IMG/VR virus record: IMGVR_UViG_3300047172_000080
Coordinates: 1 to 64,000 of that record
Reading direction: 5' to 3' (one strand)
Source of the DNA: a virus
Length of the DNA: 64,000 nt
Of this stretch, positions 5,266 through 60,973 are shown in pieces (position 1 is the first letter of the stretch; the number at the start of each line of letters is the position of its first letter). The notes beneath the pieces were generated by a model, which saw only the letters and a program-made list of their open reading frames with translations, did not search any database and was not told where the DNA came from. The translations under genes were made by a program, and so were the position numbers.

Positions 5266-6371
5266 GTTATATATGCTTTCTTTAAGTTATTTAAGATGTC
5301 TTTCGTATTGTTGTTAATTAAACTTTCTAATAATTCAATTCCTGTATCTCTAATTTCTTCTGTAAATGCCCCATTTTCTTTCAATACTAATTCCAATACT
5401 TCTGTTTGATTAGCTTCATTGGATATTTCTGACCTAATACTTATATTAGAATTTAATGTTTTATCTGTTGGGAGAATTGTCGTTCTTACAATAGCAAGGT
5501 CATATAAGAAACTAAAATCCAACAAGTTCTTATATAAGTGCTTATGATATCGTATTATATAAACAGGTTTTCTACCTTTCTTTTTAAAGCTATTCTTTAA
5601 AGCTTCTATCTCATTTTCTTTATTAAATAAAGGTAACGATTCTTCTGTAAGGCTAAATTCAAAGAAATCTCTTATTAATTCATAAGGCAATAATTCAACA
5701 TTTTCTCCATTATAATAAACATAATGTTTTTCTCGTATCTCATCTAAGGCTGTAACTCCTGTAGAGCCACAATAACCAAAGAATATATCACGAGGTTTAA
5801 TAATCTTATGAATACCAGAATGAATATCCCCAAAAACACAAGCCTTTAAATTAGGACATAACTTTATAACTTCATCCCAATCTACCGTAACTGTTTTCTT
5901 TTCTTCGCAAAAACCAAATAAACTTGGAATTTGAGTATGTAGAAAGATTGCTTCTACTGTATCTTTTTTATTAAAAATTTCAGCTAGAAACTGCTCTTTT
6001 ACAAAATCAGGATTATCATTATAAGCTATTCCTATAAACGTAGGTTCAATATTAATTTCTTTAAAATTAGCTATCTGCTCCCATGTAATATTATTAATTG
6101 CTTTACTGTGATCTCCACAGATAGCTAATGGAGTAATACCATTCTCGGATAATTTATCGTTTTGATTCTTAACAAAATCAATAGTTTCCTGATTTGGTTT
6201 ATTAGTCTCGAATAAATCACCTACGGAAATAAAATATTTAACCTTCAATTCAATAGCTTTATCAACAGCATTTGAATAATAATCAAATAAATCCTGTCTT
6301 AGTTCTGGTAAATTAAATAAAGCATCTTCTAAATGAGAATCACTGATTGCTAGAAATGTGTTATTTGACAT
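5262..6371 (-). CDS. SbcD/Mre11/gp47-like metallophosphoesterase nuclease
   Basis: motifs SDSH, VGDLFE, GDH, LHT, GDIH; near the SbcC-like gene. Confidence 0.88.
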   Translation of the reverse strand: MSNNTFLAISDSHLEDALFNLPELRQDLFDYYSNAVDKAIELKVKYFISVGDLFETNKPNQETIDFVKNQNDKLSENGITPLAICGDHSKAINNITWEQIANFKEINIEPTFIGIAYNDNPDFVKEQFLAEIFNKKDTVEAIFLHTQIPSLFGFCEEKKTVTVDWDEVIKLCPNLKACVFGDIHSGIHKIIKPRDIFFGYCGSTGVTALDEIREKHYVYYNGENVELLPYELIRDFFEFSLTEESLPLFNKENEIEALKNSFKKKGRKPVYIIRYHKHLYKNLLDFSFLYDLAIVRTTILPTDKTLNSNISIRSEISNEANQTEVLELVLKENGAFTEEIRDTGIELLESLINNNTKDILNNLKKAYIT

Positions 6372-6664
6372 TTAGTTCTATCTGTAATAAGTCTATTAAT
6401 CTCTTCCTTTTCAAGGTTTAGGACTTCTTCTCTACTATCCGCATAAAACGTCTTACCGTTTTCAAAAATAGTAGCTACCCATTGTTGCTTTTCATTATCG
6501 AACTCCACTGAAGAAGCTCTTTCAACAGTGGATGTTCCAAGCTTAAGTCTTAGTTTATCCAAGACATCACAATGAAGACCTTTTACTTTACCTTGAGGAC
6601 TGATATAGAACTTATTAGATTTCCTGATGAAGGTCTTGTTCTCTGTCATCTTCGTAAGCCTCAT
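6350..6664 (-). CDS. conserved hypothetical protein of the Ycf46/DUF1257/DUF2997 module
   Basis: ISPQG...LG...ERASSVEFD...W...F.SREE.L..E pattern recalled from this neighbourhood. Confidence 0.55.
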   Translation of the reverse strand: MRLTKMTENKTFIRKSNKFYISPQGKVKGLHCDVLDKLRLKLGTSTVERASSVEFDNEKQQWVATIFENGKTFYADSREEVLNLEKEEINRLITDRTKCQITHF

Positions 6665-6866
6665 TATAACGGCGTGAACTTTCGTTAGCTTGTCCTAATT
6701 TCTTTTCTATTTTGCGAGTAACTTCATCGCAAATAGAACCATATGATGTACCACCATCAATAGTGATTCCACCGCGAGTATTAATTAAAATTTTGTAACT
6801 TGCTCTCGCCATATTATTCCTTGTTTTTAGGGAGAATTGCGTATGCTGTTTGTGCTCCAAATACAT
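6615..6866 (-). CDS. DUF2997-like protein
   Basis: G.ITID...YGSICDEVTRKIEKKLG pattern; likely start at ATG 6812. Confidence 0.6.
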   Translation of the reverse strand: MYLEHKQHTQFSLKTRNNMARASYKILINTRGGITIDGGTSYGSICDEVTRKIEKKLGQANESSRRYNEAYEDDREQDLHQEI

Positions 6867-7008
6867 CTATCCAAGGTGTTTCTGTACCTTGATGAGTTGC
6901 ATTTCTAATATTTTCCTTAACAGGTACACGCATTACTGTTGCACCGTATTCATCGTTTACATAAATAACATTATTTATGATATCGATATGGTCTACTTTT
7001 ATAATCAT
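6814..7008 (-). CDS. hypothetical protein
   Basis: ORF in packed operon. Confidence 0.55.
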   Translation of the reverse strand: MIIKVDHIDIINNVIYVNDEYGATVMRVPVKENIRNATHQGTETPWIDVFGAQTAYAILPKNKE

Positions 7009-7229
7009 ATATAAGTATAACTAAAATCTTTATTGCTTAATGAAGATGAATCAAATTCTATTTTTGCCTCATGACCTTTAAGTGCCTGAGTATCATAAAT
7101 ATAAACTAATGTAGCTGTACCTACTAAACCTTTTATTTTTATATCCTTAACTCTTAACTCAGTCACTGGTGGGTCGTCTAAGTTATAAAAATAGTTATAT
7201 AGCCATTCCGAGATAGCTTTCTCATCCAT
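7005..7229 (-). CDS. hypothetical protein
   Basis: ORF in packed operon. Confidence 0.55.
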   Translation of the reverse strand: MDEKAISEWLYNYFYNLDDPPVTELRVKDIKIKGLVGTATLVYIYDTQALKGHEAKIEFDSSSLSNKDFSYTYI

Positions 7230-7250
7230 AAAATTAAACGATTTTAGAAT

Positions 7251-7640
7251 TTAACCTTGAGCGTATACTTCAAGTTCTATTGAACCATCTTCTAGAACAT
7301 TAGTATCATACTCTTCATCTTCTTCTTCTAGATGCTCATCAACAATATTTTTACTATATTGTTGTTTGAGCAGACCTAATTCAGCACCTAATTGTTGGGC
7401 AATAGAGGGATCATAAAAATCACCAAAGATTTTATATTGATCACCAATATGTTTGATACCTAGATCAAATTTTCCATTAGGATTAAACGCTACGTGGTCA
7501 TATTCTACATCACGTAATTCGTCATAGGTATAAGTACGAATCTTACCTGAAGATTTAAAAATCCATCCGAAAGATTCAAATGCTTTCTTTAATAGATCTA
7601 CATTATAAAACTGACTAACAATTTCAACTGTGTGGCTCAT
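7251..7640 (-). CDS. DUF1257 (Ycf35-like) protein
   Basis: MSH start, L.KA...G, DLG, L.QQY, C-terminal EDGSIEL. Confidence 0.75.
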   Translation of the reverse strand: MSHTVEIVSQFYNVDLLKKAFESFGWIFKSSGKIRTYTYDELRDVEYDHVAFNPNGKFDLGIKHIGDQYKIFGDFYDPSIAQQLGAELGLLKQQYSKNIVDEHLEEEDEEYDTNVLEDGSIELEVYAQG

Positions 7641-7644
7641 TTTT

Positions 7645-7935
7645 TTAATTGGTTATTTTAATTTTTGTCTGATCTTTTGCGGTTATGATTTCAATATAAT
7701 CAATATCTGGATAATAGCTAGTGAAATAATTTTGAACAATGTCCAATATATCACTCTTAGGATATTCTTTAAACTCTTCTTTTCCAAATATTTTCATCTT
7801 AACTGTATTATTTACAATACTGACAAAATCTCCTGGAATAACCTCGCATAGAGGCACTTCCATAAGAAGATTGCTCATATTATCATAAATCATCAACATG
7901 TCAAACGTGCTAGGGTATTCGATATCAACACTCAT
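7645..7935 (-). CDS. hypothetical protein
   Basis: ORF in packed operon. Confidence 0.55.
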   Translation of the reverse strand: MSVDIEYPSTFDMLMIYDNMSNLLMEVPLCEVIPGDFVSIVNNTVKMKIFGKEEFKEYPKSDILDIVQNYFTSYYPDIDYIEIITAKDQTKIKITN

Positions 7936-8201
7936 TATGATTTAAATGTTATTGTCCAACTCTCATCAACAATTCCAATAAATTTACATTTTTTTAAATA
8001 AGTAGTATTTACATCGTCTAAAATAGCCATAGTATTGTCCTCGATATAAATAGCTTTATTTATGTCTAAAACTATTAACCTATCTGAGATAATTTCTTTT
8101 TCTATAGGTCTATAAATTCCTACTTTTTTGAGAGCTTCTTTATAAGTTATACTTGGTACGTCTGTTTTACAGTTTTCATTAATTACTTCAATAGTTAACA
8201 T
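7935..8201 (-). CDS. hypothetical protein (probable paralog of next gene)
   Basis: shares GIY/GVY, RLIVLD/RLIILD, KF and DE..TIT with 8195..8488. Confidence 0.6.
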   Translation of the reverse strand: MLTIEVINENCKTDVPSITYKEALKKVGIYRPIEKEIISDRLIVLDINKAIYIEDNTMAILDDVNTTYLKKCKFIGIVDESWTITFKS

Positions 8202-8488
8202 GGTTTCTCCATAAGTGTTATAGTTAACCTTTCATCAGCCTCTCTAAATTTCCAACTTTCCCAAATATTTTTATTTGATTTAATTAATTCACTATCAGCA
8301 CCTTCTATTATAAGATGTAATAAAGTACCAATTTTGTCCAAAATAATTAATCTTTGATTTTTATAACTTAGAAAATCTCCATTATAACTAATTAAATAAA
8401 CACCTGCTCCACGTTTAGGTTTAGTAATGTCGTCAATAGTAAGATTAGCCTCATTTTTACATGCTAATATCTTTGCAGTTACAATCAT
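8195..8488 (-). CDS. hypothetical protein (probable paralog of previous gene)
   Basis: shares GVY, RLIILD, KF and DERLTIT with 7935..8201. Confidence 0.6.
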   Translation of the reverse strand: MIVTAKILACKNEANLTIDDITKPKRGAGVYLISYNGDFLSYKNQRLIILDKIGTLLHLIIEGADSELIKSNKNIWESWKFREADERLTITLMEKPC

Positions 8489-9474
8489 ATTTCAAGGTTC
8501 CTTAAATACTCCCCAGTTAATACAGATACATCAGATGTATTCTTTGCTACTTCCATCGCATTAGTAAGATAAGTTTTAAGTATATTTCTATCTTCTTCAC
8601 TTTCCTTAAAATCACGATTTTCTTTAAGCATTTCACTAACTAAAGTTAATTGATTAGCCATTGCTTGATCATCAAATACATTTAATTTTTCAAAATTCTT
8701 GATTTCTCTAAGTAAGGTATTCTTATTTGTTTCTGAAACAACTTCACCTTTATTAATTTTATTGATGATTACTTTACAAACATCGTTAATTCCATTTCTA
8801 AGATCACCAATTGAATCTTGAACGAATGAAGTTACTTCACTAATTTGCTTATTAACCTGGTCTTGATAACGTTGTTGTTGTACTTTAACAATTTCGTTAA
8901 CTTGTTCTTCTTCAGAAATCAATGCTTGGATGCTTATTTTTTCGAACTGATCGGGCATTGATATTCTGAATTGGGTGTAATCAAAACTAAACTTTTGTCT
9001 AACAGAAGATAAAGAAGGATAGAATGGTTCTAATACTTTTCTATAATCTTCATGATCAGTAAGAAACTCTTCTTTATAATCTTCATACTTTTCACAGAAA
9101 TCTTCAAAAAGAGTATAAAACTCATTTTTATAAGTTTCCATTTGATCCACTACCTCATCGAGGATATTCAATCCTACAAAGTAACATTGCGAAACAGGAA
9201 AATGACGACTCATTCTCTTTAGATAGTTTCTAGCCCTTTGCTCAATTTGAGAAAATTTATTAAAAATTTCTGGTTTAATAAGATTCTTTTTACCTAGTCT
9301 AACAAAGTCTGGAACAGTCTCTATTTCCAAATCCTCCTTATCCAACTGGGCTGTCATGCCCCATTTAGAGACATGGCAATGCATGAGAACTCCTTTTGAA
9401 AAGAGTTTATCATAATATTTTTGAAGAACTGAAGGAGACTGTTCTTCAGGTACTGTTTCTATTATTTCTGTCAT
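8485..9474 (-). CDS. DUF3150-like coiled-coil protein
   Basis: GVL...VS.W, LGKK.LI, IE.RAR..L, FYPS...VRQKF.F pattern; neighbour of the Ycf46-like ATPase. Confidence 0.65.
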   Translation of the reverse strand: MTEIIETVPEEQSPSVLQKYYDKLFSKGVLMHCHVSKWGMTAQLDKEDLEIETVPDFVRLGKKNLIKPEIFNKFSQIEQRARNYLKRMSRHFPVSQCYFVGLNILDEVVDQMETYKNEFYTLFEDFCEKYEDYKEEFLTDHEDYRKVLEPFYPSLSSVRQKFSFDYTQFRISMPDQFEKISIQALISEEEQVNEIVKVQQQRYQDQVNKQISEVTSFVQDSIGDLRNGINDVCKVIINKINKGEVVSETNKNTLLREIKNFEKLNVFDDQAMANQLTLVSEMLKENRDFKESEEDRNILKTYLTNAMEVAKNTSDVSVLTGEYLRNLEI

Positions 9475-9480
9475 AATTTT

Positions 9481-9696
9481 TTAATCATCAAAATGCTTAC
9501 TAGCCCATACACAAATCACAGATATAGTTATTACGCTTAAAAAAATAAAACCAAATATAATTAATATCCAAGGTCCAACATTAGTACTTATCCAAGCTTG
9601 TTCTACTGCAGGGTTATAAATTATTTGTGATAAACACCAACTCCAACTAAGAAGTAAAAATGTCCAACAAAATACTCTACTTGAATTCCATATCAT
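9481..9696 (-). CDS. small membrane protein (2 TM)
   Basis: two hydrophobic stretches. Confidence 0.55.
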   Translation of the reverse strand: MIWNSSRVFCWTFLLLSWSWCLSQIIYNPAVEQAWISTNVGPWILIIFGFIFLSVITISVICVWASKHFDD

Positions 9697-9697
9697 A

Positions 9698-9979
9698 TTA
9701 TTCTAATTGTTCTCCTACTTTACATAAGATTTCAATAGCTTCGTAAATTTGTTCTAATTCTTTTTCTGAACAATCGAAACCCGTTCTTTCTTTTAGAATT
9801 TCACCATGCATAAAAATATTGTTAAGCATAATAGAAAATTTTTCTAATCCTACTTCTAATATAATTGTTCTAACTATACTTTCTCCTAATTCTTGACTTG
9901 TATGTATTTGCATATTAATTATCCAATCAGTAATACTAACGCTCCATCTGTATCTATTGCTACGTCTTCTACATGCCAT
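9698..9979 (-). CDS. hypothetical protein
   Basis: ORF; likely start at internal MQIHTS. Confidence 0.5.
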   Translation of the reverse strand: MACRRRSNRYRWSVSITDWIINMQIHTSQELGESIVRTIILEVGLEKFSIMLNNIFMHGEILKERTGFDCSEKELEQIYEAIEILCKVGEQLE

Positions 9980-10125
9980 CGAGCATGTTTCTTATTTAAA
10001 GGCTCCCCTTTTTTATAATTTCTATTTTCTTGTACAGCGATTTCATAAGAACGTTCTTTAGAAGGAAGATCCAATACGTGATTAACTAATTCTTTATAGT
10101 TCATCTTTAACAAATAAGTTACCAA
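9919..10125 (-). CDS. hypothetical protein
   Basis: ORF; likely start at internal MNYKEL. Confidence 0.5.
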   Translation of the reverse strand: MVTYLLKMNYKELVNHVLDLPSKERSYEIAVQENRNYKKGEPLNKKHARWHVEDVAIDTDGALVLLIG

Positions 10126-10189
10126 CTATAACAATAACAAGTGAAATTAAACCTATTCCAATAAATAACCAAAAGTCATTCCAATTCAT
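10094..10189 (-). CDS. 31-aa single-TM peptide (not in ORF track)
   Basis: manual translation MNWNDFWLFIGIGLISLVIVIVGNLFVKDEL directly after the ATPase stop. Confidence 0.45.
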   Translation of the reverse strand: MNWNDFWLFIGIGLISLVIVIVGNLFVKDEL

Positions 10190-10193
10190 AATT

Positions 10194-10916
10194 TTATTCA
10201 ATACTTAGTTCTCTCATTAGATTATCTGTGTCATTTTCATCACCGCCATATACTTTACTGGCGGGTTGTAACTTACCTTTAATATTATTTCTCAAATCTC
10301 TAAGTTGATCCTCATGGATCTTAGCATACGGAGTTGTTTTTCTTAATATTCTAACAATGTCTTTATCTGTAAATTCACGCATCTTATCATCAAACGCATA
10401 TAACATGGCTTCCTGAACAGCTACGTCAATTTCCGCTCCAGTAAGTAACTCACTTTTAATAGCTAGTTCTTCTAACTTAAACTTTTCAGGATCTCTATTA
10501 TACTTGGCAATAATAACCTTAAAGATATCCATTCGCTCACGTTTAGTAGGAAGGTCTACAAAGAATTTTTCATCGAATCTTCCAGAACGAATTAACTCAG
10601 GAGGCAACAACATAAAGTTATTGCAAGTTGCGACCATGAAGCTAGTAGAAGTTTTTTCAGATAACCAATTTAACAATGTACCAAACAACCTAGATGAAGT
10701 ACCACTATCTCCTGATCCAGATACTGCGCCAGCATTAAAACTCTTTTCAAATTCGTCCAGAAGAATGACGGATTTTCCAATAGCATCTACCGTAGCCAAA
10801 ACTGCACGCATGTTGCTTTCAGACTCTCCAACACGACTTCCAAACAATTTACCTACATCCAATTTCCATAGTGGACTATTAAAAGCATTGGCAATAGCTT
10901 TACTAACTAACGTTTT
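10194..10916 (-). CDS. Ycf46-like AAA ATPase, exon 2
   Basis: begins KTLVSKAIANAFNSPLWKLDVG (completes Walker A GIPGTG/KT); Walker B ILLDEFEK; SRH LPPELIRSGRFDE. Confidence 0.9.
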   Translation of the reverse strand, partial: KTLVSKAIANAFNSPLWKLDVGKLFGSRVGESESNMRAVLATVDAIGKSVILLDEFEKSFNAGAVSGSGDSGTSSRLFGTLLNWLSEKTSTSFMVATCNNFMLLPPELIRSGRFDEKFFVDLPTKRERMDIFKVIIAKYNRDPEKFKLEELAIKSELLTGAEIDVAVQEAMLYAFDDKMREFTDKDIVRILRKTTPYAKIHEDQLRDLRNNIKGKLQPASKVYGGDENDTDNLMRELSIE

Positions 10917-11236
10917 CAGTTTGTTATCGTATAGGCTTTTTATCCTATACTTCTATACCTTGTTTTTTGGTATAGCTCAGCATATCTTTTCACCTTAAAT
11001 AAATGAAGGTGTCGTGGCCTCTTGGAGGAATTATATTTTTTCATCCTCTATGCGTTGCCCCTGTCTATATAGAATAATCTATAATAACTTCAGGTCTGAT
11101 TCTCATTTCAGAGTTCCAGTTTTTTTTTCCACGATTTTACTCTTATTTGTTTCCAAATAAGGTGGCAAAATATTTAGTTTATAACAATCTAAATACCTGC
11201 TTACTTTTCTATCTAAAATAAAGTAAACAGTATATT
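10917..11236 (-). ncRNA. group I self-splicing intron (IA-like, 320 nt, no ORF)
   Basis: exon 1 ends in U (11237), intron ends in G (10917); removal restores GIPGTG|KT in frame; P7 GCAUA(11053-11049)/UAUGC(10984-10980) within AAGAUAUGCUG; P3 UCGUGG/CCACGA; IGS UUUUGCCA; P2 GAAA tetraloop; P8 and P9 hairpins. Confidence 0.92.
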
Positions 11237-12115
11237 ACCAGTTCCTGGGATTCCTGCCAACAATACAGCTTTTGGTGCTTTTAATCCATACTTCTTGGCT
11301 TCAGGAGAAAATACTTTTCTACGATTAAGAATCCATTCTTTAACATTTTCCAAAGCACCTACATTATCAAATGAGATATCTGCTTCAATATATTCCAACA
11401 AACTGTTCTTTTTAATTTGCTGAATCTTTTCTTCAAAGACGATATCTAGATAAGCCTTATCAAACGAACCTTTAGTCGTAATACTTGCTAATGAAAAAGC
11501 TGCATCAATTTCAGAAGCAGTCATGCCTTTAGCTGCTTCAGTTACATTAGTAATAAATTCTTCAGTAACTACTACATTTTCCCTACCTTTACTTTTTACA
11601 GCTTGATTGGTAGCTCTTATATTGTCTTGTAAGGTATTTTTAATCGCTTGTTCATCTGGAAGAAAATATTCTACAACTTGAACTTCTTTTTCTAATTCTA
11701 TAGGAATTGTAAAATTAGGCGAAATGAATACTATCATATTGGCATTCAGCCTAAGTACGTTAGCTAAATTTCTAATCTGCCTAATATAATCCTTAGCTTT
11801 TACACGAGATTCCAGTTCCATATGGAAATCTCTAAGTACATAGACACATTTCTTTTCTTTTCTCTCCGTTACTCCTTTTTCAATCCATTTAAGAAGTATG
11901 GTAGCATCATCTGAATCTTTAGGAGCATTAAACTTATCGTCATCTCTAGCCAAGATACCTGCAACTGAGTCCCAAAAGTAAAACTTACCAAAATTTTCTC
12001 TAGTTTTTAATGCTTCATATAGGTCATTTGTAACACGTTTCTCTTCGTGTGTATTAATTACAATTAGGGGATACGCCGCTTTAGCGTAATTCAACATCTT
12101 TTCTGCAAAATTCAT
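11237..12115 (-). CDS. Ycf46-like AAA ATPase, exon 1 (spliced protein 533 aa)
   Basis: AAYPLI.I.THEE.R, VYVLRDFH, IPIELEKE, FDNVGAL...K.W, AVLLAGIPGTG. Confidence 0.9.
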
Positions 12116-20885: not shown

Positions 20886-22398
20886 AAAAAAAAAGCGTTT
20901 TTTATCCAGTATATAGGTTTGATATCCCCCCTACATACTGGACTTTCTCTTGTGAGAGACATGTAGAAAGAGTACACTTCACAAAGTCGTGTAACTTATA
21001 CTTCCTACCATGACTAATCGATGTGCATTAGCCATTTTCAGAGGGAACGTGCGTCATCACCGCATAACCTCTTATTGTTTGAATCTCCGTAGATTCCGCT
21101 CTATGCCTATTACGCTATTTATACTCGCATAGACGAGTTGGAAGAGTAGGTGCTTGCTACTATTGTTGTGATTTTCACAAACACCTACTCACTCCCGCAA
21201 TCAACTAACTGGCAAATAAAACCGAGAAAAAAATAAATGTTATTGGTTACATTGGTTTCAAACTACCTCCTGGAGTCAGGATGTTATGTTAAGCATCCTT
21301 AAATGGGGAAAAATGCAACGTGCTGTATCTTGGGGATACAACACGCTTAGTAGTATAGACCTGCATTGTCAGTCGTTTAGACGGCCAACCGCACGATCTT
21401 GGAACTTCTTCCATTTCTAGAAATTATTATTTATTCGCCCTTGCATGTGAGGAGAGTTTACTTAACTTCTCACATGCAAGGGTTTTCAGGGTTTCCAATT
21501 TCCCTAGCTTATTTTCTACTGCCCATAGAGATAACAAGCAAATTCATATGGGCGCTTCACGACTACTTGGTACTTTAATATTCAACCGTGAATATTGAAT
21601 ATAAAGGTTTTTGATGTGGAGATCTCTAACTCCAGGAAAAATCAACGCATTAGGAGAGCATCGAGTTTCTGTAAACTCTGTACTCAAAACTGAATTACTT
21701 TTTCAAGGTAGTCCTTCCTATTAGGACAATATATATATATATATAATTACTTACTGCTTGAAAAGCTAGACAATTCCCCCGCTAATTCAGTATTTATGTG
21801 GCTCTATAAGATTTACTTTAATTCAGTAAAGCAGCCGCTTATAGCATAAACATGTTTTTAGGTTCATGTCGTAAGTGAAGAGAATTTACCCCTCCTATCA
21901 GGCAATGATAAAGTTCTAAATGCTGCTGGTCCAGGTAACCCTTGGATTACTGCCGTAATTGCCAAACTCGTGTCCTACCACGGCGATGCGTCTAGATCAG
22001 CTATAATACACCATCAAGAAAACAGAAGTTCTCCATCTATTGATATACTATATTTGCCATGCCGATCAAAATTATAGATTGAAGTCCACTTGTTCACACA
22101 ACGCATCGCCTAAGCTCAAGCTATAGAAAAGCTCTTTTCGTAACTATTACTAGAATACGATTCGCCCAACAGCATTCATGGCATCGGTTCAACAAGTGGA
22201 CTTCAATCTACATAATTTATATAAGGGAAATCTTTTCTGACATCTACTTGATGTATGTTTGAATGTGGTTGTGTGAAAATCTCTCAATTTGTGGAGCACA
22301 TTCAGCTTTAAAAGAACGAGTATTTGACCCTACATCTAGGTACATTTTAGCACAAGTAGATGCCAGAAAAGTGAAACAGAAACTAACAGCTTCCATTA
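20886..22398 (-). ncRNA. candidate large (~1.5 kb) structured non-coding RNA of unknown class
   Basis: no convincing ORF; many stems up to 20 bp; long-range complementarities; at least 7 stems with G-U wobbles on the minus strand; phage promoter at 22405-22445; hairpin plus U-run near 20886-20942. Confidence 0.7.
21729..21745. repeat. (AT)8 microsatellite
   Basis: ATATATATATATATATA. Confidence 0.9.
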
Positions 22399-57947: not shown

Positions 57948-59323
57948 TTAAAGTTCCCCGGCCTAAAGGCACGGGGATTTAGCCGAGTCCTTCACCAACG
58001 CCAAATCGCCATGCAGAACGCACGATTCAGAGTTAATATCGACAGACCCGTTGCTTGTGCGGGCTTTAAGGCTCCGCGTCCCCGCAGCGTTGCACGCTAT
58101 GGAGACAGACCGCGCCCGAATGTTTTTCGAGGCTTGAAGGTCGGCATCGTCTTTGTGGCCGCACTTCTGACAGCAGAAGCGCAAGCCTTTCCGGTTCGAT
58201 GCCGAGACATGGCCGCAGGCGCTACACCCACGGCTTGTGTTGCGAGGGCTAACCGCCTCCAATTCTATGCCGACAGCCGCAGCCTTATAGGCGATCTTGA
58301 ATCGCATATCGGCATATGGCCAGCGATGGACTTTGGAACGGAGGTCTTTCCCCTTACTCAGCGAACTGTCTCGGATATTGCTGAGTTCTTCTACAACGAT
58401 GCGCCTTGCTCCAACCTCAACCGCGTAGCTGACCAGTGCCTTACTTGCCGTGTGGAGCAAGTGCGCGGTTACGGCAGCCTCATGCCCGGACATCCTTCGC
58501 AGGAGCCTCCGGGCACTTCTGGTGCCAACCGACTGGACAGCGGCGCGGGTGCGCCGGATGCAAGAACGACGGTGATTCAACACCCCGCCGTGGAAGAAAA
58601 ATGGTTTGGCGTTCACCGAGTTCGTGGCGACCAACATCCGTTTGATGCCGAAATCGCAGCCAACGATACAACCTTCGGTCTTCGGCTCGGCGATCTCAAC
58701 TTCGTGAGCCAAGCAGAGGAACCACTGTTTGCCAATTCGCTTGATTTTGGAATCTTTCCATGCGCCTTCTGGCAGTTGACGAGAATCGCTGACAGTCAGG
58801 AGTTCACCCCAAAGTGTGATGCCTTTATTGGTGCGGTTGAAGTCCCGCTTCCACACCGTCGGGATGACGGCACGGGAAAACTTCGCAAGCCTCCAACGCT
58901 TGTTCGCCTTGGCGGTCTTGTAGGTAGCGCAGACGGTTTTGCAGAGGGAGCAGGCAAGTTGGGAAGGCAGTCCCATTTCTCGGAGATTGGCATAGTGGGC
59001 TTTTGCCAGCCGATTCGAGTTCAATTCCTCAGTCTTGAAGGCAATCGCCGAAAGCCAGTTTGCGGCTTTCAGCCAAACAGTAAGCAGGCCGTCAGCTTTT
59101 GTGCTGCCGGAAATCTTGAGCTTGACTGTGTGGATTGCTTTCACTACATTGAAGACTACTACCAAGAAAAAACAATGTCAACCGAATTGCGAAGGAATAA
59201 TCACAGCGTTTCCAGATTGCTCGTGCATCTGGTTTTCGTCGTGAACGAGACGCTCAAACTCTACGTCCAGTCACAACAAACCAAAGCCGCCCTAAAGGGC
59301 GGGGTTTCAACCCACAAATTTTG
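57948..59323 (-). mobile_element. IS200/IS605-family element (tnpB plus internally deleted divergent tnpA)
   Basis: GC-rich; subterminal hairpins at both ends (CCGCCCTTTAGGGCGG; CCCCGTGCCTTTAGGCCGGGG); inserted 3' of TTCAT with no target duplication; right end TTTAA. Confidence 0.9.
57963..59165 (-). CDS. tnpB: RNA-guided endonuclease TnpB
   Basis: RuvC I VGCDFG, RuvC II IVVEEL, TSRGCSACG/CQKCG zinc finger, RuvC III DADLQASKNI. Confidence 0.93.
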   Translation of the reverse strand: MVVVFNVVKAIHTVKLKISGSTKADGLLTVWLKAANWLSAIAFKTEELNSNRLAKAHYANLREMGLPSQLACSLCKTVCATYKTAKANKRWRLAKFSRAVIPTVWKRDFNRTNKGITLWGELLTVSDSRQLPEGAWKDSKIKRIGKQWFLCLAHEVEIAEPKTEGCIVGCDFGIKRMLVATNSVNAKPFFFHGGVLNHRRSCIRRTRAAVQSVGTRSARRLLRRMSGHEAAVTAHLLHTASKALVSYAVEVGARRIVVEELSNIRDSSLSKGKDLRSKVHRWPYADMRFKIAYKAAAVGIELEAVSPRNTSRGCSACGHVSASNRKGLRFCCQKCGHKDDADLQASKNIRARSVSIACNAAGTRSLKARTSNGSVDINSESCVLHGDLALVKDSAKSPCL

Positions 59324-59470: not shown

Positions 59471-60973
59471 TTAAGCTCTCCATACCCATCTCTTTTTACC
59501 ACAATCCCAAATCTTGTACAATCCTCTTTGATTAGCCCATTGCTCTTCTGTTAAATTAATTGGGCAATTTACTCTATTTTTTCTTTGAGATTGTTTAGAA
59601 ACTCTAATATGGTTTTTTAAATCAGCGTAATCATAATCTATATCCATTTCTTTCTCTAAAGTAAAACCTAATGACTTATATACGTGTCCTTGACTCCATC
59701 TATTATCACTCCAACTCCAAATTTCATTACATTTATACTGTTCTCGAAGAAATTTAAATAATCTAGAAGCTCCCCCTACTACTGTATAGTTAGATTTAAA
59801 ACATAATCTATCTAGCCAGATTTTAGTGTCTGTAATGTCAAAAGGATGCCTACCAAAGCTCATTACTCCTATTAACTCATTATTATAAAATAGACCGGCA
59901 AAATACTTACCAAGAGAATTTGCTCCTTGGATATGATATAACTCAATAAATTTATTAGCTTCCTGAACTTCAATTTCTCGTACTTCGCATTTACGAGCAT
60001 AAAGTCTATTTTCATTCTTATTTAAAACAGATCTTAAAAAACCTTTTACTTGGTCTTTTCTTTCTAACCATTCATCTTCAAAAATAGTAATTAATCTTAC
60101 TCCTTTAGCTTCACATCCTAGTCTTTTATTGTTGCGACTAGTCTTATTTTTATTGAATAAATTAGAATGCCATCTCAATCCATTATATTCTATACCTAAG
60201 TTTATGGATTCCTCATAAAAATCTATTTCATATCCTGATAATATTTTAAAATCAGAATTAAAATTAAAACCAAAAGAATTAAGCCAATCCTGAATAATCG
60301 CTTCTTCTTTCCCATATCCACTAACCCATGCCGAACCATATGTAGCGAATCTAGTTGTTATTTTCTGCTCACGGATTATAGCTGAATCTTTAATAATACT
60401 ATTTCTTTTTAAAATACCTTGTATATTTTCTCTAGAATAACCTATTTCATTTTTATGCTTACTAGCTATTTGGTCAGCTGTTAAATTAAGAACCAAATAT
60501 TCGTATCTAATAACCTCTATATTTGTTTTAGATTCTTTATAAAGAATAAGCTCATTGGGCCTTTTTATACCTAAACTAGAAGCATGTTGTTTAACATTCG
60601 TGTATTTTGTATTATAAATTTGCGTTAACTCTTCTTTAGACTTAGTTAGATAGTTGTTTTCAAATTCCTTATCATCTCCAAATTCTGTTAACTTTCGTCT
60701 ATCTACATCATATTTATCTAAAATTCTATACAACGATGTTTGAGATATATTATATTTTAAGAGTACATCTCTATAAGATAGATTTTTAAAATCTTCTACA
60801 ATTACTAACTCATTTACTTTCAACGCTTTTTTATTTAAACCTAATTTTGAAGCCTTTAATTTAATGCTATGCCAAAGTCTTCCAGGTAATAAATTACAAA
60901 TATCTTCTTTAGTTAATTTACAATAGCTATTAACTAATATTTCTACTTCTTCGTTTGACCAAGTTTTACACAT
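59471..60973 (-). CDS. Hef-like/PD-(D/E)XK homing-endonuclease-type protein
   Basis: EIDFY...LGIEYNGLRWHS, LITIFEDEW, LYARKC, V.GGASRL, IWDCGK; N-terminal Myb/HTH-like repeats. Confidence 0.78.
   Translation of the reverse strand: MCKTWSNEEVEILVNSYCKLTKEDICNLLPGRLWHSIKLKASKLGLNKKALKVNELVIVEDFKNLSYRDVLLKYNISQTSLYRILDKYDVDRRKLTEFGDDKEFENNYLTKSKEELTQIYNTKYTNVKQHASSLGIKRPNELILYKESKTNIEVIRYEYLVLNLTADQIASKHKNEIGYSRENIQGILKRNSIIKDSAIIREQKITTRFATYGSAWVSGYGKEEAIIQDWLNSFGFNFNSDFKILSGYEIDFYEESINLGIEYNGLRWHSNLFNKNKTSRNNKRLGCEAKGVRLITIFEDEWLERKDQVKGFLRSVLNKNENRLYARKCEVREIEVQEANKFIELYHIQGANSLGKYFAGLFYNNELIGVMSFGRHPFDITDTKIWLDRLCFKSNYTVVGGASRLFKFLREQYKCNEIWSWSDNRWSQGHVYKSLGFTLEKEMDIDYDYADLKNHIRVSKQSQRKNRVNCPINLTEEQWANQRGLYKIWDCGKKRWVWRA

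Follow-up and report, generated by a model that had tools for sequence, protein, structure and literature searches.

Introduction

The td intron of phage T4 belongs to group IA2 and its self-splicing is well established. The td intron is annotated as a 'group 1A intron' in NC_000866, and carries a GIY-YIG gene (I-TevI) in P6. The closest described system to the locus analysed here is found in the crAss-like phage cr6_1 (NC_055894), in which an intron of the same family interrupts an ATPase gene (gp44/gp43/gp42) at the same point of the protein, GTG|KT (GTKGTG|KT in cr6_1). According to Yutin et al. 2021 (PMC7886860), ATP_43b is one of the core genes that bear introns in the Delta group of crAss-like phages; the cr6_1 ATPase is probably this gene. 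In jumbo gut phages, evidence of splicing has been obtained from metatranscriptomes, according to the literature.

We analysed a stretch of 64,000 nucleotides of viral DNA (positions 1 to 64,000 of the 79-kb IMG/VR record IMGVR_UViG_3300047172_000080, referred to below as the window), in which an initial annotation had placed an ORF-less group I intron inside the Walker A motif of an AAA ATPase. When the window locus was compared with cr6_1, the core motifs were found to be common to both introns, and in both the core of the guide sequence (IGS), UGCC, adjoins a GAAA-looped P2. The two differ in the junction codons (GGU|AAG in cr6_1, GGU|AAA in the window) and in P7 (GCGUA/UACGC and GCAUA/UAUGC, respectively). 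The host ATPases are unrelated, that of cr6_1 having approximately 300 residues as against 533 in the window. Finally, the P1 loop of cr6_1 holds a two-motif LAGLIDADG gene, annotated as 'intron-encoded endonuclease', whereas in the window this loop contains 58 nt of hairpins.

An AAA+ ATPase gene is split within Walker A

The split gene lies on the minus strand of the window and was resolved into three parts:

11237 to 12115, minus strand: exon 1 of the AAA+ ATPase (ORF list; PHROG 8638; homologue alignment)
10917 to 11236, minus strand: predicted ORF-less group I intron, 320 nt (family covariation; model R1; blastn; fold z)
10197 to 10916, minus strand: exon 2 of the AAA+ ATPase (PF00004, AAA_lid_3; PHROG 8638; homologue alignment)

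Exon 1 encodes 293 amino acids, comprising the N-terminal domain and the first six residues of Walker A; it ends ..AVLLAGIPGTG and its last base is a U (11237). Exon 2 encodes 240 amino acids and begins KTLVSKAIANAF, with the Lys-Thr of Walker A coming first, followed by the AAA core and the lid. Pfam recognised AAA (PF00004, 3e-20) and AAA_lid_3 in exon 2. On the PHROG 8638 profile, exon 1 was found to cover positions 21-317 and exon 2 positions 318-541, so that the two are contiguous at the junction. Mycobacteriophage AAA-ATPase genes that lack the intron gave two tblastn matches that meet with no base between them (59904 and 59903 in Krili). The protein collection contained SpoVK/Ycf46/Vps4-type homologues without an interruption, 495-555 aa long and up to ~50% identical. 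Five full-length homologues were aligned, and in each case exon 1 stopped at G[VI]PG[TC]G and exon 2 opened with K[TS]L, with a gap or overlap of 0. Once 11236-10917 is removed, the two ORFs join in frame, as the initial annotation had claimed, to give a 533-aa product that aligns without gaps to the uninterrupted homologues. Because the profile, the tblastn matches and the homologue alignment are all continuous across the junction, the gene, which encodes a predicted Ycf46/SpoVK/Vps4-type AAA+ ATPase, is cut between the Gly and the Lys of Walker A (GIPGTG|KT).

The predicted splice junction brings together the exon-1 end ...GGAACUGGU and the exon-2 start AAAACGUUAG.... Moving the junction by one base (GG|...|GAAA) would leave the protein unchanged; GGU|AAA is preferred because of the U.G rule. 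Searches of IMG/VR with peptide patterns found no intron-less or endonuclease-bearing allele of this ATPase in a sister phage. Likewise, a set of 5.8 billion proteins held no close relatives of the ATPase: the best full-length match was ~50% identical, and the only close match of nearly the same length was the product of the window itself.

In the same region (6350-12115), a DUF3150 gene (8485-9480; Pfam 8e-20) adjoins the interrupted ATPase. The pair fits a Ycf46-AAA/DUF3150 module with the ATPase as its motor.

Sequence and predicted structure of the intron

In what follows, intron position n corresponds to window position 11237 - n. The intron begins AAUAUA and finishes ..ACUG, the terminal G being 10917. 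Within 10917-11236 all reading frames are at most 53 aa from stop to stop and there is no homing-endonuclease gene, in agreement with its description as ORF-less. The following elements were delimited:

11171 to 11230, minus strand: P1-loop expansion of 58 nt with two hairpins (local fold)
11163 to 11170, minus strand: IGS UUUUGCCA (sequence; local fold; UGCC core of the family)
11143 to 11160, minus strand: P2 hairpin with a GAAA tetraloop (sequence and fold; GNRA loops in most relatives)
11060 to 11134, minus strand: 5' strand of P3 to P6a (RNAalifold, n=50, and pair counts)
10980 to 11053, minus strand: P7 to P7' segment (RNAalifold, n=50, and pair counts)
10917 to 10975, minus strand: P9, P9.1 and tail (RNAalifold and pair counts; 3' tails of the family)

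We folded the last 6 nt of exon 1 together with intron positions 1-76 (z = -3.4). In this local fold, P1 was formed as UGGUAA/UUGCCA and enclosed two hairpins (intron 7-17/30-40 and 41-48/60-67), with U 11237 placed opposite the G at intron position 71. The GCCA of the IGS thus pairs with the UGGU of exon 1, leaving a U.G wobble at the 5' splice site, and the UUUU of the IGS (intron 67-70) is complementary to the AAAA of exon 2 (10916-10913), giving a candidate P10. Pairing of the IGS with both exons, which had been proposed from the start, is therefore borne out by the local fold for P1 and by sequence for P10. The expansion of P1 by two hairpins was also recovered. The resulting P1 loop is of unusual length for a copy that has no ORF; no homologue of the insert was present among the 117 loci compared, hence comparative support for the intron does not extend to this part.

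Downstream of P2, the 5' strand of P3 (11134-11129) is followed by an A-rich J3/4, by P4 (11119-11116/11099-11096) and by P5 (11113-11111/11104-11102), with J4/5 and J5/4 forming an AA/AA pair of joiners; P6 and P6a occupy 11094-11060. P7 consists of GCAUA (11053-11049) and UAUGC (10984-10980), two internal positions of which depart from the usual GACUA/UAGUC. Between its strands lie P7.1 (11048-11044/11029-11025), a CCAAGAG joiner, the 3' strand of P3 (11017-11012), P8 (11010-11006/10996-10992) and J8/7 (GAAAAGA). The 3' portion is made up of P9 (10975-10969/10959-10953), P9.1 (10950-10944/10935-10929) and the tail GAUAACAAACUG, in which the terminal G 10917 comes last. When the whole insert was folded as a single sequence (z = -7.0), the minimum free energy structure contained P2, P3, P4, P5, P6/6a, P7.1, P8, P9 and P9.1.

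Comparison with the T4 td intron

The window intron and T4 td share one helix order, in which an additional hairpin separates P7 from the 3' strand of P3. In both introns P9 and P9.1 form two hairpins that are followed by a short A-rich tail and a terminal G. Short shared elements could be identified by eye in J3/4-P4-J4/5, P4', J6/7-P7, the joiner before P3' and J8/7-P7'; we take these to be the classical P, Q, R and S elements. In J3/4-P4-J4/5, td has AAAC-GGGG-AA-CCUC and the window AAAC-UGG-AA-CUC; in P4', td has AAUCCCG and the window AAUCAG. Further correspondences are UAACGACUA in td with CAACGCAUA in the window, GUCAAGUG with UCCAAGAG and GAGAUAUAGUC with AAGAUAUGC. P7 of td is GACUAU/AUAGUC, as against GCAUA/UAUGC in the window, and the gene carried in P6 of td has no counterpart in the window intron.

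MAFFT aligned the window intron to T4 td poorly, and the covariance model of the intron family (R1, see below) gave no match on T4 td or nrdB. The tie to proven introns therefore consists of the architecture and the short elements. On this basis the insert is best filed as a group I intron of apparently IA-like architecture, a class assignment judged by helix order and short motifs and not by scored homology to td.

A widespread intron family with covarying core helices

With blastn, the 3' half of the intron matched the gaps in split genes of other phages, with E values down to 3e-20, which speaks against a chance resemblance. The matched places, split genes or intergenic regions in crAss-like, Clostridium, Staphylococcus, Enterocloster and Bacillus phages, were 69-84% identical to it. 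A core motif was derived from the first four aligned copies, and it was found at more than 112 places in IMG/VR.

For the analysis of covariation we aligned 50 distinct members, starting at P3 and running to the 3' end, all of them chosen for a perfect 6-bp P3. Unguided RNAalifold (n=50) recovered P3, P4, P5, P6/P6a, P7.1, P8, P9 and P9.1, with changes on both sides in 42 of the 46 pairs. P7 was then added as a pseudoknot: 94.7% of the cells could pair, compared with 32-42% when the partner strand was slid by 1-3 columns, and double changes were present in 43 of the 51 pairs. The covariation score was 0.774 (0.09-0.15 for the slid partners), and none of 500 shuffles reached the observed values. 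The third pair of P7 covaries perfectly, being G-C in 29 members and A-U in 21 (n=50), and the window has A-U at this place. The remaining four P7 pairs do not vary among the 50 members, though only their 5' strand is independent evidence, since the search pattern had fixed part of the P7 3' strand (and part of the P7.1 loop). The first two of them, G-C and C-G in 50/50, are as expected for the predicted guanosine-binding site, again with independence limited to the 5' strand. P7.1 showed double changes in 4 of its 5 pairs (n=50), and some relatives, the window not among them, have a second hairpin inside the P7.1 loop. The exon U, the terminal G, P3, the GCAUA/UAUGC P7, P8 and P9 listed by the initial annotation are thus all present, with covariation across the 50 members behind the helices.

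Outside the aligned core, the guide core UGCC was found directly 5' of P2 in most of the family members examined, and P2 is nearly always GNRA-looped. Compensatory changes in P1 and P10 were seen in relatives: P1 is GUCGGU/GCCGAC in one case and GGAGGU/GCCUCC in another, and P10 may be AUUC/GAAU in place of the AAAA/UUUU of the window; P10 is weak in some relatives. At the 3' end, most relatives have N-U/C-G before the exon. In one related locus (L001, MT835539), the stretch 1600-1700 has no open frame past the expected 3' end ..GAUAACAAUACUG into the downstream ORF, which begins at 1640, right behind a TAG.

A trimmed covariance model of the family, R1 (201 positions), was built with the window copy in its seed and, with this copy in the seed, scored 151.9 bits on the window. 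R1 found no second copy of the intron there.

Rfam does not detect this family

Rfam RF00028 (Intron_gpI) gave no match on the whole window at the gathering score and none on 10700-11450 at E <= 10; three related loci were also without an Rfam group I match. As a control, the same model (Rfam release 15) was run on the T4 td and nrdB introns (L118, T4 134000-147000), where it likewise found no match at E <= 1. Because RF00028 misses T4 td and nrdB too, its negative result says little here, and negative Rfam scans should not be used as grounds for dismissing phage group I introns. The covariance-model check put forward in the initial annotation was therefore formally negative, yet invalid as a refutation. 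The standard Rfam group I model thus overlooks an entire and very common family of phage introns in addition to the two T4 introns, and because it does so, split P-loop genes in phage metagenomes can be expected to be mis-called routinely.

Endonuclease genes in the P1 loop of relatives

In cr6_1, the guide sequence is found downstream of the LAGLIDADG gene, and this ORF therefore sits in the P1 loop. The P1-loop expansion of the window intron occupies the same place. In cr6_1 (L002:561-1643), in L001, in L025 and in others, the 3' end of the LAGLIDADG gene overlaps the IGS, P2, P3-P6 and the start of P7, and the stop codon lies inside ..GCGUAACGCGUAG; protein code and ribozyme core therefore share ~150 nt. 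Relatives thus accommodate an ORF of ~0.9 kb in the P1 loop. A related contig (L116) has an ORF-less copy of 269 nt at the same site as in cr6_1.

The window intron probably descends from a relative that carried an endonuclease gene, and the 58-nt insert in its P1 loop may be the remnant left after the loss of this gene. Among introns whose relatives retain a P1-loop endonuclease gene, it provides a clean example of a copy with no ORF.

A trans-acting nuclease encoded by a free-standing gene at 59471 had been suggested as one means of mobility for the intron. This ORF (59471-60973, minus strand, 500 aa) has N-terminal helix-turn-helix repeats and a Mom/GNAT-like C-terminus in Pfam, and it matches PHROG 3339 'homing endonuclease' (5e-80) and PHROG 559 'HNH endonuclease'. 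The homing-endonuclease label comes from PHROG, Pfam recognising only the Mom/GNAT-like end, and nothing links the ORF to the intron 48 kb away.

Other elements were observed elsewhere in the window. A match to the Pistol self-cleaving ribozyme (RF02679) was obtained at 21063-21138 on the minus strand, with 39.6 bits against a gathering score of 34.5 and over the full length of the model. A TnpB-like gene (57963-59165, minus strand) has OrfB_IS605 and a Cas12f1-like TNB domain and lies in a GC island (58001-59000) of 57% G+C, in a genome of ~32% G+C. This stretch has the look of an IS200/IS605-type element that was acquired recently from a source of high G+C.

Proposed splicing and alternative explanations

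Taken together, the insert is very probably a true group I intron, well formed and without an ORF; the ATPase would be made only after splicing. According to the predicted structure, the ATPase gene would be transcribed into one pre-mRNA, in which the intron would fold into its P3-P8 and P4-P6 domains. The guide UUUUGCCA would hold the UGGU end of exon 1 in P1 with the U.G wobble, and a free guanosine, bound in P7, would cleave after U 11237. The guide would also align exon 2 (AAAA, P10), and exon 1 would attack after the terminal G 10917. The ligated mRNA, reading GGA ACU GGU AAA ACG across the junction, would encode the 533-aa ATPase, its Walker A (GIPGTGKT) restored. From unspliced RNA, translation would meet a stop six codons into the intron and yield no more than a 299-aa fragment lacking the ATPase. 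The initial annotation had held that ATPase activity depends on removal of the insert; we agree that it must, because the cut falls inside Walker A and no start codon lies close to the 5' end of exon 2.

We considered whether the intron might have decayed and no longer splice, which would leave the ATPase as a pseudogene or reduce it to the 299-aa N-terminal fragment. Such decay might be read from the unusual 58-nt P1-loop insert, which is without relatives, and from a P10 of only 4 A-U pairs. However, the window copy keeps every invariant column of the 50-member alignment and its core helices are all intact. Both exons are open and conserved over their full length in comparison with homologues, and relatives tolerate the ~0.9-kb ORF in this very P1 loop. 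Decay is for these reasons unlikely.

It is considerably less likely still that the gene is naturally split, with two polypeptides that assemble and a spacer RNA that has some other role or none. Gene callers do report two ORFs, and the protein collection includes a product of 205 aa whose called start is a Met within exon 2. Against this, two chains separated between the Gly and the Lys of Walker A cannot rebuild the motif without ligation, and no start codon was found near the 5' end of exon 2 in the ORF list. The spacer, moreover, has the full covarying fold of a group I intron, with its splice sites exactly at a codon boundary.

An intervening element of another kind, which has nothing in its favour beyond the interruption itself, can be set aside almost entirely: 320 nt is too short for a group II intron and the insert is without group II domains, stops in every frame reject an intein, the insert is far longer than any gap known for translational bypass of the T4 gene 60 kind, the lack of a second copy in the 79-kb record speaks against a small transposon, and the structure matches a group I intron.

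Walker A as a recurrent insertion site

Approximately 20 of the 103 distinct family members were found directly before K[ST]. In addition to AAA and the crAss-like ATPases, the Pfam assignments of the hosts at this site were AAA_24, DnaB_C, TerL_ATPase and ResIII/DEAD helicases. The following loci have the intron directly before the Walker A Lys:

L044 and L018: AAA_24 gene
L055 and L109: DnaB-like gene
L112 and L113: SF2 helicase gene
L074, L095 and L097: TerL gene

Wherever the 5' splice site could be placed in these loci, the 5' exon ends at Walker A [AG]xxxxG, coded ...GGU, and the 3' exons all start with AAR. In comparison with the window, their host genes are non-orthologous and many of the copies contain endonuclease genes. 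The view that the window intron has an unusual host gene was thus overstated: a P-loop ATPase is not an unusual host for this family, as the same G|K site is used in the cr6_1 ATPase and in at least four other P-loop NTPase families.

Discussion

The window intron joins a phage intron family that is already known and very common; it leaves our knowledge of group I introns unchanged. For annotation of this genome, the ORFs at 10197-10916 and 11237-12115 should be merged as a single 533-aa AAA+ ATPase. The intron adds one more host gene for a family that is found repeatedly at the Gly-Lys of Walker A.

How the family came to occupy this site is a separate matter. We tentatively regard it as a realistic possibility that the lineage spread into the GGU|AAR of at least six non-orthologous P-loop NTPase families (Ycf46-type AAA+, crAss-like phage ATPase, AAA_24, DnaB-like, SF2 helicase and TerL), either by reverse splicing or by means of endonucleases with relaxed specificity. 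The guide core UGCC is near-fixed, and the intron lineage would therefore be able to follow only GGU. The P-loop is a generic landing site for inteins. Our literature searches found no paper that deals specifically with group I introns targeting the P-loop. That a single intron family, its guide core fixed, has repeatedly used the Gly-Lys of Walker A is the sole point here that may merit a dedicated study; if the proposed spread is true, the P-loop would serve one ribozyme family generically in the way that it serves inteins.
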